Virus record (IMG/VR): IMGVR_UViG_3300005573_000008
Coordinates: 5,641 to 69,640 of that record
Reading direction: 5' to 3' (one strand)
Source: a virus
Lineage: Duplodnaviria > Caudoviricetes
Length of the DNA: 64,000 nucleotides
Shown: one piece after another, positions 690-64,000 of the stretch
Position numbering within the stretch: the stretch's first letter is position 1
Layout of the letters: every line of letters starts with the position of its first letter
Position numbers and translations under genes: made by a program
The notes under the pieces: model-generated
The model's input: the letters and a program-made list of their open reading frames with translations, nothing else
The model's database searches: none
Told to the model about the DNA's origin: nothing

Positions 690-1193
690 ATGTCCACCCC
701 ACGACTCACGCCAGACCAGCGTGTACCCGCGCGCTATACCGGCTCATACGCGGTTCGTCTGGCGCACCGCGATATCAATGGCGCCATCAAAGACGAGACG
801 GGCGCGCTGCGCAACAACACCAAAGTTCGTCCGGGCGACATCGTGCACCTGCGCGCCCACGAGGTGTACGGCGCGTCGTACTTGTTCGACCCGCGCGGCG
901 AGCGCGATCCGCAGTTCCTGGGTGTGGGTAAGGTCGTCCTCCCTGAACACGCCCAGCTTTCCGATGCTGAACGGGCCGCGCTGGGCTACGAGCATCATGA
1001 GGGACGAAGCGACTTCGAGCCGGTGTACCCGCTGGAAGACGCCACGCGGCGATTTGCCGCGGCAGCTGAGCCCGTTTCGGCCGCGCCTGCGGATTCCGTC
1101 AAACCGGACGTGTCCGTAAAGACGGGGAAAGGCTCACGTGCCGCTACCACGGAATCGACTGCACAGGACGGTTCCGCGTCACACGAGGAATAG
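690..1193 (+). CDS. Hypothetical phage protein
   Basis: RBS GGAGGG upstream; tightly packed in the tail operon; low-complexity C-terminus. Confidence 0.7.
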   Translation: MSTPRLTPDQRVPARYTGSYAVRLAHRDINGAIKDETGALRNNTKVRPGDIVHLRAHEVYGASYLFDPRGERDPQFLGVGKVVLPEHAQLSDAERAALGYEHHEGRSDFEPVYPLEDATRRFAAAAEPVSAAPADSVKPDVSVKTGKGSRAATTESTAQDGSASHEE

Positions 1194-59711: not shown

Positions 59712-60086
59712 ATGTACTACAAGAATAATCCTGCCGTCCTCGAATCCGACGACCTTGGTGAACTGCGCTCGCTTGAAACGAGCCAGGGATCCGACGGCAC
59801 GCAACTCGTCACGATGACATTCACGGTCAATGGCAAAACGTATCCCGTAGGCGAAAAGCCACAGCACGTGGCACTCACCAATGGCGTCTCGCATCGCTTG
59901 CTCCCGGTTCCTCCGCATATGCCGGCGGCCTCCGAGCTCACCATCGCATCAGCCCCGGAAGCAGCATCACAGGAGACTGCGCCAGCTGAGAGCGTGCCCA
60001 CACTGGCGGCTGACAAAGCGAGCGAACCGGCATCTGAGATTGTCACCCCTGAAATCAGCGATGACGCGGCTGGTACCGTGTCCTAA
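59712..60086 (+). CDS. Hypothetical head-region protein
   Basis: RBS GGAG; acidic low-complexity tail. Confidence 0.6.
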   Translation: MYYKNNPAVLESDDLGELRSLETSQGSDGTQLVTMTFTVNGKTYPVGEKPQHVALTNGVSHRLLPVPPHMPAASELTIASAPEAASQETAPAESVPTLAADKASEPASEIVTPEISDDAAGTVS

Positions 60087-60106
60087 TCGTACGGAGGGCC
60101 CGCCAC

Positions 60107-63100
60107 ATGGCTGAGCCACATTCGCCGTCTTCGGCCACGTTGGCGGCATCTCCTCAGGAATCTATCGACTTCACGGTATTTACCGGAGCGATGGAACTCG
60201 CGGAGTACAGCGCGACCGATGAGCTCATCAACCTCGTCGGCAAACCCGAGCTGCAAACACGTCTTGCCGAACTGCCTCGTCCGCTCGTGCATATGGTCGG
60301 TAGCAGCACGGAGCGTGACCTGCAGGGCGATCGCATGACGGTGACGGCGCTGCAGGACATGACGCAGTGCGATCCCAACCTGACCATCTTCCTCAATCAC
60401 GACTACACGCTGCCCGACAGCGTTTTCGGCAGTTTGCAGGGACAGCCCAGTATCGTCATGAGCGGCGGCATCGCTGACCTGCACTTCACCGCGGACGTCG
60501 AGATCATCAATCCCAACGCGCTGCAGACCTGGCTGTACGTCCAGCGCGGCCGGCGCATGGGTGTCTCAGGCGGCTTCATGGTGACGGGCTACCAGTGGGT
60601 AGACCCGCTGTCGGAAGAGCCGGTGGACGAGGACGACCTCGATTTCTGGGACATCATCGAAGGCAAGGTGGTGGTTGACATCACCCACGTCAAGATGGTT
60701 GAACAGTCCGTCGTGGGCGTACCCGCCAATCAGCGGTCGTGGGTCGAGTACGCCATCAAGGGACTGTTCACACGCACTCACAATCCCAAACTGGCGCCCG
60801 TGGTCCGCAGCCTCTGGCCAGAGAAATGGCGGAACCTGCTTGCCGGCGTCGAGAGTCGCGAGTTGACTCAGACGCTTGCGGAAACCCTGCCGCGCAAGAC
60901 AAAGAGCGTGCCACGCCTCTTCTGGCTGCCAGAGACGCGTTCGTTCGTGCTCGAATCCGGCACACGGCAGCGCCAGGTGCCACGCTCCCAGGTCAAGGAC
61001 CTGCTGGCATCCATCACTCCATCTGCCAATCGAACTGCAGCCCCGGCCGTGCCCATCACGACACCAGACGGGCTGAAAGGAGCGTCTATGAACGACGATA
61101 CAGGCTCCACGCCCGACATCATCAAGGGCGCGACCGGCAAGTCTGACTGGCCACTCGCTGACCGTGATCGCGCGTGGGACGGAGGCGCGGCGCACAAGCG
61201 TCTGCTTGAGTGGGCGGGCGGCAAGGAGGATCTCGACAAGGCGAAGTTCCGCTCGGTCCACTTCTGGTCGCCTGAGGGCGATGCGGCGGAGAACGTGAGC
61301 GACTACAAACTGGCCTTCTGCGACGTCATTGGCGGCGAGGTGAAGGCGGTCCCGCGCGGGATCTTCGCCTGCGCCGGTGCGCACGGCGTGGATGCCGCTG
61401 ACATCCCTCAGGCCGACAAGGAGAAGGTGCGCGGGCGCATCGAGGGCTACTACAGGCGCATGGCGAAAGAGTTTGATGATGACACGATTGTCGTGCCATG
61501 GGCCGATGAGAAGAGTCTGCCCGACGGATTCGCCATCGTGAAGGCGGAAGATGGTGACGTTGCGGTGAGCGCCGATGGTCGCCACGCGCCGTTTACTGGC
61601 GAGCACACCCACCGACACAAGGCGATGGGCAGCCAGGGCAATGACGAAACTCATGAGCATACACATCGCCACAATGGAGATGCTCGCCACGATCACGCGC
61701 ACGAGAAAGCGGCCGGTGACATCGCGCAGAAAGGCGAAGGCGATGGCGTCAGCATCCAGGTGCCCGAAGGAATACCGGACCAGGCCACAGACCAGCGCCC
61801 AGATCAGACAAAAGCCGGCGACGGTAGCGTCATCATTCTCGAAGACGGAACGCATGCGCCGTTCACCGGCACGCACACCCACGACCACCAGGATGGCCAT
61901 GGCGGCCATCACGCGCACGAGCACGCCCACCATGGTGATGCGGATCACGGCCACAGCCATGATGACCTTCGGGAGGAAAAAGCACTTGATGCGCATACGC
62001 TCGCGCTGCTCAAAGCCTACAATGACCTTGGCGCGGCACTCGGGTTTGCGGCGGTAGACGGCAAAGGGATGCGTGCCGACGGCATCGTCATGAAGGGCCT
62101 GCTCAAGGATGATGACGACAGCCAGGAAGTCATCACGCTCGTCTCGCAGATCGACACGATGACTGATACACTGTGTGACGCGCTCGCCGAGGTCAGCCCA
62201 TGGCAGCTCGACTCGCGTGTGGATCGCCTGATGCAGTTGCTCGGCATTCCCGACATCGATGACGATGGCGCGTCAGACGATGATGACAGCGACACACCGC
62301 CACCCGCCGCTACGATATCTGGCGGCCCGATCTACAGCTCGCGCAGCGCACATCGTCTGGCACGCAAGGCGGGCAAGCGCCACAGTCAGACTGATCTGGA
62401 TCTCATCCAGTCGATCCACGATGCCTGCATGTCGCTCACCGACGGTCGGTGCTGCGAGAACGCGGCGGCTAGTGCCGCGGAAGATCAGACCAGCGCGGAC
62501 GATGATGCCGCTGGCGATCAGATGCAGGATGTCCGCGACACCCTTGCCGGCAGCAAGGAGACGAAGGCGCAACTGGGTGAGTTGACGGCAGCGGTGAGCA
62601 TGCTCACGAAGGCCATGAGTGGCCTTGGCATTGCCGCGCTCATGGAGCAGGTACAACTGGTCGAACATGCACTCGCATCGGCTTCCGCCGAACAGCAGCA
62701 GCTCGCCGCACAGACCACCGCGCTTGCGGAGCAGGTAGGCGAACTCGCGCATGTTCCCCTGGGACGGCCGACACGGCTCGCGCGCGCCATGACTGGTGCC
62801 CCCACCAAAGCGCTTGACGAGTCGGGCGCGATCACGACAGACCAGCTCATGACGTTACTGTCGGCTTCGACGTCGGCTGACGACGACCTGTCGCCAGAGC
62901 AGCGGCTTGCGCGCGCCTACGAGCGCACGACCAAACAGTATGTGCAGGGGGTCGGACTCTGCCGGCACTGGCCGGCTGGCGTTGGCAAGGGCATCCGGCC
63001 CGAGCTCAGCAAAGAGCAGCGTGTGGCCGTGATGGGCTTGCCGGATGGCGTGAGTCACATTATGCGCTATGAGGAGGGCGGAGACGCCCTGATCCCGATC

Positions 63101-63118
63101 ATCGGCCACGATGATTGA
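60107..63118 (+). CDS. Prohead maturation protease fused to scaffold-like and His-rich domains
   Basis: N-terminal SSTERDLQGDRM...LNHDY...GVSGGF...EQSVVGVPAN (HK97-type protease); two His-rich units; helical C-terminus. Confidence 0.8.
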   Translation: MAEPHSPSSATLAASPQESIDFTVFTGAMELAEYSATDELINLVGKPELQTRLAELPRPLVHMVGSSTERDLQGDRMTVTALQDMTQCDPNLTIFLNHDYTLPDSVFGSLQGQPSIVMSGGIADLHFTADVEIINPNALQTWLYVQRGRRMGVSGGFMVTGYQWVDPLSEEPVDEDDLDFWDIIEGKVVVDITHVKMVEQSVVGVPANQRSWVEYAIKGLFTRTHNPKLAPVVRSLWPEKWRNLLAGVESRELTQTLAETLPRKTKSVPRLFWLPETRSFVLESGTRQRQVPRSQVKDLLASITPSANRTAAPAVPITTPDGLKGASMNDDTGSTPDIIKGATGKSDWPLADRDRAWDGGAAHKRLLEWAGGKEDLDKAKFRSVHFWSPEGDAAENVSDYKLAFCDVIGGEVKAVPRGIFACAGAHGVDAADIPQADKEKVRGRIEGYYRRMAKEFDDDTIVVPWADEKSLPDGFAIVKAEDGDVAVSADGRHAPFTGEHTHRHKAMGSQGNDETHEHTHRHNGDARHDHAHEKAAGDIAQKGEGDGVSIQVPEGIPDQATDQRPDQTKAGDGSVIILEDGTHAPFTGTHTHDHQDGHGGHHAHEHAHHGDADHGHSHDDLREEKALDAHTLALLKAYNDLGAALGFAAVDGKGMRADGIVMKGLLKDDDDSQEVITLVSQIDTMTDTLCDALAEVSPWQLDSRVDRLMQLLGIPDIDDDGASDDDDSDTPPPAATISGGPIYSSRSAHRLARKAGKRHSQTDLDLIQSIHDACMSLTDGRCCENAAASAAEDQTSADDDAAGDQMQDVRDTLAGSKETKAQLGELTAAVSMLTKAMSGLGIAALMEQVQLVEHALASASAEQQQLAAQTTALAEQVGELAHVPLGRPTRLARAMTGAPTKALDESGAITTDQLMTLLSASTSADDDLSPEQRLARAYERTTKQYVQGVGLCRHWPAGVGKGIRPELSKEQRVAVMGLPDGVSHIMRYEEGGDALIPIIGHDD

Positions 63119-63253
63119 TTATTTCTCACCGCCGATTGCTTTCGCCGCAGTATGCAGCTCCCTCGTGCGTGGGTGCCAAGGTGCGCGGCGTGGCATAGAA
63201 ACCTGGTGTTGCACCCTATGATCGCCACGTGCGCACGTGGCAAAGGAGCTAGA

Positions 63254-63581
63254 ATGCCTACTGCCGTTCAGGACAGCCCGCTGGAGTTTCGCTCCACGCT
63301 GGCCCATCCACAGGACGTGACGTATCAACTGGAGCGCCGCAAGAAGATCAACACGCTGATGCGCTACTCCGTGGATGAACTCAAACAGATGCTGCGCGTT
63401 GCGCAAATGCAGCCCGCGCCGCGCGACGAAAATGGCGTGCGGCAGACCATGGCGCGCGAACTGCGCAGCGCGTCGTTTATCCCCGACACGGTCAAGGACA
63501 TCCTTGGCACAGCAGCCGGCACGGGTGAAGCCGACGGCTCCGCTCTGGTCCGGCAGGACCTGGAACCCATTATTTACGCGT
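63254..63581 (+). CDS. Major capsid protein, exon 1 (interrupted by an intron)
   Basis: SD AAAGGAG; ends GSALVRQDLEPIIYA; the in-frame TAA coincides with the intron start. Confidence 0.7.
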
Positions 63582-64000
63582 AAATGAACTGCGCCCTCAT
63601 CGCGTAAGCGGTGTTGAATAACCACCCTGGAAACGGTGAAACTCCCAACGCTGACGGGAATGGCAGTGGACAACGCCGTGGCAAGCAAGGGCGACCGACC
63701 CTGTGCAGCCGTAACGACTAAGTGGGTGGCTCCTGATGATGGGAGGCAACGATAGACTGAAACAGTGGGGCGAAGTCCTTTTCCTTTCGCAACGTGAGCA
63801 TGTGGCAGGCCTCACAGAGCGTGATGCCATTGTCCAGCAGATTCCGACCGCCAAGACGGCGTGGCACGATGTGATGCACATGCAGCCGTTCAGTCGCGCC
63901 GCAGTTAGGCATCTGGCACTGGTACCCATCTCGCTCGTAGATGCGCGCCCGCTTTTGTGGCGAAAATGCGGGACGATATGCCGCGCCACCCCGCAAGCAC
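63582..64000 (+). ncRNA. Group I intron in the capsid gene (3' end probably beyond the window)
   Basis: P1 GCGU/GCGC with a U.G pair at 63581; P2 with a GTAA loop; P3 CCACCC/GGGTGG; P element GGAAACGGTGAAACTCC; Q GACAACGCCGTGGCAAG; R GTAACGACTA. Confidence 0.82.
63718..64000 (-). CDS. HNH endonuclease, antisense within the intron (5' end off-window)
   Basis: RIYERDGYQCQ..CG...LHVHHIVP..LGG.N..DNGITLCEACH; the frame stays open to the window edge. Confidence 0.88.
   Translation of the reverse strand, partial: CLRGGAAYRPAFSPQKRARIYERDGYQCQMPNCGATERLHVHHIVPRRLGGRNLLDNGITLCEACHMLTLRKEKDFAPLFQSIVASHHQEPPT

Follow-up and report, generated by a model that had tools for sequence, protein, structure and literature searches.

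How a phage can keep an essential capsid gene in use when its frame is broken by an insertion carrying an endonuclease gene on the opposite strand is the question raised by a 69,640-bp viral contig (C1) of hot-spring metagenome origin, of which the window analysed here, a stretch of 64,000 nt, covers C1:5641-69640. A preliminary description of this DNA had proposed that the capsid gene is interrupted by a group I intron and that an antisense HNH gene ends inside the ribozyme core. Only the first 419 nt of the 1,121-nt intron lie inside the window (63582-64000). Window 63880-64000 repeats C1:1-121 exactly; with this direct terminal repeat of 121 bp the contig is taken as circular, so that the element continues at the contig start (L003, corresponding to C1:1-6000); the contig is rated 100% complete. 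Intron (IVS) numbering starts at the first intron base (window 63582), position i being window 63581+i for i up to 419 and L003 i-298 beyond. An assembly artefact is excluded because the same layout occurs in four other contigs of other samples and because the source run's second assembly gives the same arrangement of exon 1, intron and HNH gene. The proposal is supported by the boundaries, the restoration of the exons and the helices, and the locus is very probably a mobile, self-splicing group I intron in an SU10-type capsid gene, the intron's P8 loop carrying an HTH-HNH homing endonuclease gene on the antisense strand.

Exon 1 is preceded by an AAGGAG ribosome-binding site (63243-48), and its frame reads ...IIYA up to 63580, as described before; the TAA that follows (63581-83) is formed across the splice site. 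A continuation of the capsid after ...IIYA, which the preliminary description asked for, exists: exon 2 (L003:824-1761) directly follows the terminal G of the intron (L003:823) and resumes the capsid frame exactly. The interrupted gene is an SU10-type major capsid gene, the 311-codon frame in L003 (826-1758) matching Pfam SU10_MCP. The closest of 95 capsid homologues, P0001 (421 aa), is uninterrupted and reads ...DLEPIIYALFVKQFP..., i.e. IIYALFVKQ over the junction; the lengths add up to the same 421 codons (109 + 1 for the Leu codon split U/UG + 311), and both exons are open and 88-96% identical to this intact homologue. Relative to the intron-less loci L004 and L005 (capsid identity 96%, neither intron nor HNH gene present), the insertion is exactly 1,121 nt, TACGCGT being followed by AAATGAAC at the 5' boundary and AAGTGTG by TGTTCGTG at the 3' boundary. 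It is preceded by U and its last base is G, and its excision restores ...IIYA-L-FVKQ... as in the intron-less relatives. Precise interruption with a restored frame (against L004/L005, X2 and P0001) and a U·G pair in P1 together with a terminal G (exon GCGU facing GCGC; intron end ...GUGUG) are what is expected of a group I intron.

The X2 contig, from an independent 2024 metagenome, has an exon 1 of 97-99% DNA identity, is likewise intron-less and is without the HNH gene: at window position 63579 it passes directly into ATTATTCGTGAAGCAGTTTCCATTGTGGGA, the intron-less allele reading YALFVKQFPLWE. With L004/L005 it documents the presence/absence polymorphism among close relatives that is typical of homing endonuclease elements. 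At the insertion site (window 63579-63583), two synonymous differences distinguish the X2 allele, GCA TTA versus GCG T/TG (the slash marks the splice site), and could reflect a co-conversion tract or a cleavage-resistant variant. A tblastn search of cultured phages with both capsid exons gave no match.

The boundaries also bear on a simpler view, according to which a free-standing endonuclease cassette would have cut the capsid gene in two, each part being translated into its own polypeptide without any splicing of RNA. Exon 1 does end in a stop codon, and a GTG is available at L003:823-825, but this GTG has no Shine-Dalgarno sequence before it, the boundaries obey the U...G rule and re-create a conserved Leu codon, and the 260 nt flanking the ORF constitute a covarying group I core that a simple cassette would not need; this view is hardly credible. 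The coordinates of the features are collected in Table 1.

Table 1. Features of the intron-containing capsid locus; positions without prefix refer to the window, and a slash separates the two strands of a helix.
Feature	Position	Strand	Sequence or remark
Major capsid protein exon 1	63254-63581	+	109 codons and first base (U) of Leu codon; 88% identical to P0001 residues 1-109
Group I intron	63582-64000, then C1:122-823 (= L003:122-823)	+	Exact insertion versus intron-less L004/L005 and X2 contig
P1	63578-81 / 63591-94	+	Exon GCGU / internal guide GCGC; U·G at splice site
Candidate P10	63585-89	+	UGAAC, can pair with GUUCG of exon 2; read from sequence only
P2	63598-63613	+	Hairpin CAUCGC-GUAA-GCGGUG, GNRA tetraloop
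P3	63622-27 / 63724-29	+	CCACCC / GGGUGG
P4	63633-38 / 63674-79	+	ACGGUG / CGCCGU
P5	63643-45 / 63668-70	+	UCC / GGA, extended; P4-P5 domain 63633-63679
P6	63680-82 / 63708-10	+	GGC / GCC, extended stem, 63680-63710
P7	63716-20 / L003:741-745 (= C1:741-745)	+	GACUA (R element) / UAGUC
P8	63731-36 / L003:727-732	+	UCCUGA / UCAGGA, pairs across HNH gene
Inverted repeat, left arm	63751-63760	+	GAUAGACUGA, perfect 10-bp repeat; partner L003:689-698; contains UAGAC
HNH gene, 3' part	63718-64000	-	93 codons and stop; HTH-HNH homing endonuclease gene, 249 aa in all
P9	L003:750-755 / 762-767		6 bp
P9.1	L003:769-774 / 784-789		Loop CAGAAAUGA
P9.2	L003:792-798 / 803-809		7 bp
Intron tail	Ends at L003:823		GAGUAACAAGUGUG, ending at terminal G

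All group I helices are present in this copy. The plus-strand P1, P2, P3, P/Q (P4) and R elements of the preliminary description are all seen again, the three stems of the 3' domain can all be drawn at L003:733-824, and the P8 loop (869 nt, IVS 156-1024) holds the minus-strand HNH gene. Where that description hesitated was P7: it took UAGAC (63753-57) as the nearest candidate for the 3' strand, and considered either a variant or degenerate core or a true 3' strand beyond the HNH gene, off-window. The UAGAC is there, but as part of the P8 loop and of the HNH codons, and it is rejected as P7 3' strand because a canonical UAGUC is found ~900 nt downstream, past the HNH gene; it is the second option that holds, and the idea of a variant or degenerate core falls. 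The canonical S element (AUAGUC, L003:740-745) stands at the family-typical 34 nt from the P9.1 loop. Both P7 strands match the Rfam consensus (RF00028: AGACUA for the 5' strand) and do not vary within the family, the 5' strand being invariant in 19/19 aligned cores, an invariance owing to which P7 yields no covariation evidence. P7.1 and P7.2, which mark the IA2 introns of T4 and SPO1, are absent; the core may be IC3-like (compare the Azoarcus core), no subgroup being claimed.

The remaining helices are supported by covariation, strongly and family-wide for P3-P6 and P9-P9.2, and among the capsid introns for P1 and P8. P1 tracks its exon context over three insertion sites (GCGU/GCGC, GCCU/GGGC and GGGU/GCCC), P3 covaries (CCGCUC/GAGCGG, CCACUC/GAGUGG and CUUCUC/GAGAAG) and P8 does so across the ORF (UCCUG/CAGGA in L007, UCCCGAUUACC/GGUAAUCUGGA in L009 and UCCUGGA/UCCAGGA in L059), being a plain hairpin in L132 (CCCAGAC/GUCUGGG). 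P2 is a GNRA-capped hairpin in the present intron, L006, L007, L009 and L132, with a different stem sequence in each, and has another loop in L010. Because the length of J3/4 varies by 1 nt, P3 was out of register in MAFFT alignments of the 5' core; the register was resolved by a covariance model of the P3-P3' core (R1), which found 64 cores. In the 64-hit alignment P4 is paired at 98.6%, P5 at 95.1% and P6 at 96.7% (with GC to CG swaps and the reverse), compensatory changes occur in every P4/P5 pair and double changes in 18/18 pairs; over P3-P6, 93% of cells are paired, versus 65% in shuffles and 35-52% with slid partners, and 0/500 shuffles reach the observed values. For the 3' domain, a 71-sequence alignment shows compensatory changes in 14/18 predicted pairs. 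At least 120 IMG/VR contigs contain the 3' motif CAGAAATGA-N15-35-GAGTAACAA, its loop being closed by a stem of at least 5/6 bp in 117/124 occurrences.

A conserved core with covariation, as expected of group I introns, is what these alignments display. The LittleE-type family is defined by the R1 core and a tail of S-P9-P9.1 (CAGAAAUGA)-P9.2-GAGUAACAA, with 34-50 nt from S to the loop, and the present intron has both the core and the 3' domain. Its R1 score of 65.8 bits is that of a seed member and is circular because the models were built from this same intron family, the independent scores being those of non-seed hits and LittleE only. As a side observation, one IMG/VR contig (L103:2345-5958, minus strand) holds eight core-model matches within 3.6 kb; four of them lie ~216-227 nt apart and are therefore read as back-to-back ORF-less introns with very short exons between.

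The curated Rfam model of group I introns (RF00028, Intron_gpI), of the kind suggested as a check in the preliminary description, gave no match for this copy: cmscan of window 60000-64000, of 63450-64000 and of L002 returned no match at E<=10 for either intron half. The copy, split by the contig end and by the 869-nt P8 loop, stays below the gathering threshold of 50 bits, and the compact 225-nt intron of the ORF-less relative L010 (L010:3267-3491) is not matched by RF00028 either. Relatives sharing the 3' domain or the core are matched over a range of 27.6-111 bits, among them L014 (111 bits), L036 (108), L026 (61.5), L049 (49.9), L019 (49.2) and also L030, while the LittleE intron (L133:2859-3062) reaches 30.7 bits, under the 50-bit threshold. 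In its R (..GACUA..) and S (..AUAGUC..) elements, and in P3-P9 topology, the intron agrees with RF00028. Two further stems, P9.1 and P9.2, with a conserved 9-nt loop, are added in the present family; in L014 and L036 they lie past the point at which the Rfam alignments stop on the 3' side. RF00028 under-detects this phage intron family, which it mostly misses.

An experimental reference point is provided by mycobacteriophage LittleE (Cluster J), in which the capsid gene is interrupted by an intron with an endonuclease gene, gene 14, 'transcribed in the leftwards direction' (Pope et al. 2013, PMC3706429). Its splicing was established by RT-PCR and N-terminal sequencing, and its type was given by the authors as 'unclear, but most likely a group I' (PMC3706429). 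The LittleE locus (JF937101), outside the R1 seed, scores 69.9 bits (E 2e-22) and has the complete S-P9-P9.1-P9.2 domain with both family signatures, gene 14 residing in the P9.2 loop; this score and the shared 3' domain place the present intron in the RNA family of a proven splicer. Common to both are an interrupted major capsid gene, an exon 1 ending in U, an intron ending in G and an antisense endonuclease gene, so that the layout is already published and is no novelty here. The two differ in the endonuclease, LAGLIDADG-like and in the P9.2 loop of LittleE, HTH-HNH, in the P8 loop and overlapping P7, P3' and P8 here; they differ also in capsid family, insertion site and host lineage, and in that splicing is experimental for LittleE, whereas self-splicing of the present copy is predicted from its sequence. 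No direct account of an antisense endonuclease gene in a bacterial or phage intron came out of the literature searches, LittleE being the precedent.

These comparisons make it very improbable that the element is defective, with an intron that no longer splices and a capsid pseudogene. Such a loss would agree with the failure of Rfam to match this copy, but none of the core helices is damaged and all agree with the covariation of the family, the genome is complete with its terminal repeats, both exons have stayed open and close to the intact homologue, and a member of the family is proven to splice (PMC3706429).

The HNH gene itself has the parts expected of a homing endonuclease gene. It starts on the minus strand with an ATG at L003:588, 7 nt after a GGAGGTG Shine-Dalgarno sequence, and the ORF is intact. 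The translation contains an HNH domain (Pfam PF01844, E 7.8e-11) with the catalytic His/Asn/His and the zinc-binding cysteines (CQMPNC...HVHH...N...CEACH), N-terminal HTH repeats as a DNA-binding region (Sigma70_r4_2, E 8e-9; HTH_23, E 9e-7) and a match to PHROG 8446 'HNH endonuclease' (E 2.8e-28). The protein ends in ...FQSIVASHHQEPPT, and its TAG (63718-63720, minus strand) is, as first noticed, the complement of the CUA in the P7 5' strand GACUA. Of the ribozyme segments that the preliminary description placed under the last codons, P3' and the P8 5' strand do lie there, but J8/7 is ~900 nt downstream, off-window; the last eight codons and the stop overlie the P8 5', P3' and P7 5' strands, the strand opposite P3' (GGGUGG) encoding the Pro-Pro-Thr end of the protein. 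The P8 loops of L007, L009 and L059 contain antisense HNH genes 46-48% identical to this one; the stop of L009 falls on the same CUA, and the ORF of L007 extends 39 nt more, into P6. Among cultured phages, tblastn with the N-terminal part of the HNH protein found only distant HNH genes of 24-30% identity (PhiCh1, HJTV-4 and PBC2), and blastn with the 5' core and the 3' domain found no match.

Altogether, the intron is genuine and probably active and mobile. In the mechanism proposed here, the late capsid pre-mRNA would fold into P1-P2-P3-P4-P5-P6-P7-P8-P9-P9.1-P9.2, the intron splitting the Leu codon between bases 1 and 2 (Leu between ...IIYA and FVKQ...). Guanosine would attack after U63581, the U of the U·G pair in P1, and the exons would be joined after the terminal G (L003:823), creating the junction GCGU-UGUUC (GCGUUGUUC) and a 421-aa capsid protein. 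The 249-aa HTH-HNH protein would be made from its own Shine-Dalgarno sequence, and probably from its own promoter. It would cut or nick the intron-less capsid alleles of co-infecting relatives at the presumed target TACGCATTATTCGTGAAG, and repair would copy the intron in.

Related introns occupy this capsid gene in other contigs too, at three sites, and four contigs have orthologous antisense HNH genes. Site A follows DLEP (L006 and L132), site B lies at the Leu between IIYA and F (the present intron, L007/L008 and L009) and site C separates NGL from VHA (L010, ORF-less and ~225 nt, and L131); L059, grouped here by its intron, has an L007-type core and an antisense HNH gene in P8. Related HTH-HNH genes (~30% identity) are antisense in the P9.2 loop in L132 and sense upstream of P3 in L131, and L006 has an antisense LAGLIDADG gene. 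Elsewhere in the RNA family P8 holds sense-strand LAGLIDADG, EndoVII-type or GIY-YIG genes; sense orientation is therefore the rule, and antisense orientation a recurrent feature of these capsid introns. In L007 and L008, a GIY-YIG endonuclease gene (L007:4608-5297 and L008:2546-3235) lies directly downstream of the intron-containing capsid gene, a capsid locus that has in this way a second homing-type gene.

Such diversity invites a different account of the association, in which the HNH gene is an independent invader of an ORF-less intron and may not drive mobility, because it cuts elsewhere, needs neighbouring sequence or is decaying; intron and endonuclease would then be two selfish units merely sharing a locus. 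The distribution of homologous genes over three loops and both orientations, the existence of an ORF-less version (L010) and the other gene types found in the P8 of family members speak in its favour. Yet the P8-antisense HNH genes have co-diverged with the intron at the same site (46-48% identity, with capsids at ~50%) and are still intact, as if maintaining the intron, and intron-less alleles lack both intron and HNH gene. This account is considered unlikely, and a homing endonuclease that would propagate its own intron remains the preferred interpretation.

As to expression, the minus strand upstream of the HNH gene has three features common to the four P8-antisense loci (the present one, L007, L009 and L059): an extended -10-like box (TGCTATAAT, TGATAGAAT or TGATAGACT), a nearly invariant 26-nt leader block GACGAGCGGTTtTCCGAGCCGCGCCC (L003:620-660, minus strand; IVS ~920-960) and an identical Shine-Dalgarno region. 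The leader block is nearly invariant though the HNH proteins are only ~47% identical, and since it is out of frame with the ATG in L009, the constraint must act on RNA or DNA. An N-terminal extension of the HNH protein through the leader, open in the present locus, L007 and L059, is ruled out by this L009 frame, and also by conservation at the nucleotide level and by the conserved Shine-Dalgarno sequence before the ATG. A generic sigma-70 promoter scan, run with a terminator scan, found no consensus promoter for the antisense gene, the candidate TTGAAG-17-TAGACT having 8/12 matches. Because this generic scan finds nothing, independent antisense transcription is here something we infer, but a transcript of its own would fit the conserved Shine-Dalgarno sequence and the promoter-like box.

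An inverted repeat brackets the HNH gene, its left arm lying in the C-terminal codons and its right arm being the -10-like box, and contains a nested 7-bp repeat (UGGGGCG/CGCCCCA). It measures 10 bp here, 8 bp in L007 and 10 bp in L009, with conserved sequence and no covariation, and could either lengthen P8 across the ORF or be a repeat or promoter element at the level of DNA.

The HNH mRNA would be fully complementary to the P8 loop and to the P8 5', P3' and P7 5' strands, and this, together with its nearly invariant leader block, raises the idea that the antisense layout is a working regulatory design, a temporal switch between homing and virion production, instead of an accident of invasion. 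If so, HNH transcription at the early stage would keep stray capsid pre-mRNA from splicing, and heavy late capsid transcription would silence the endonuclease via transcriptional interference and duplex degradation; this idea is regarded as quite doubtful, more so than the invasion of an ORF-less intron discussed above.

Antisense endonuclease genes are also found in nuclear rDNA group I introns, such as those of I-DirII of Didymium and of the L2066 introns (PMC3073962, PMC9548176), where the gene runs against the host transcript, as it does here, and is expressed by means of a separate promoter, as is probable here. However, the rDNA systems have eukaryotic His-Cys box genes using Pol II, spliceosomal introns and polyadenylation, whereas the present gene is of bacterial type, has a Shine-Dalgarno sequence and lies within a late phage gene that codes for protein. 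The classical phage group I introns, T4 td/I-TevI and SPO1/I-HmuI, have sense-strand endonuclease genes (PMC2988022, PMC3984707). They resemble the capsid intron in interrupting an essential phage gene, in an ORF looped from a peripheral helix with an end reaching the core, and in presence/absence polymorphism; they differ from it in the sense orientation of the endonuclease gene and in P7.1/P7.2.

The known picture of group I introns is unchanged by this finding, which adds a new example and not a new layout. What it brings is the placement of the LittleE intron in a large covariation-supported group I family with a signature 3' domain, represented in at least 117 IMG/VR contigs. One capsid family with three insertion sites and HTH-HNH genes in three loops and both orientations offers a compact set of natural cases in which the association of introns with endonuclease genes can be studied. 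On the practical side, annotation pipelines will wrongly split such a capsid into two genes and report an unconnected HNH gene beside them.

A last observation concerns the capsid leader, where contigs of two other metagenomes (X2 and X3) have a 4-nt insertion (CGTG) at window position 63227; it falls inside a palindrome proposed in another preliminary note as a late-gene control element.
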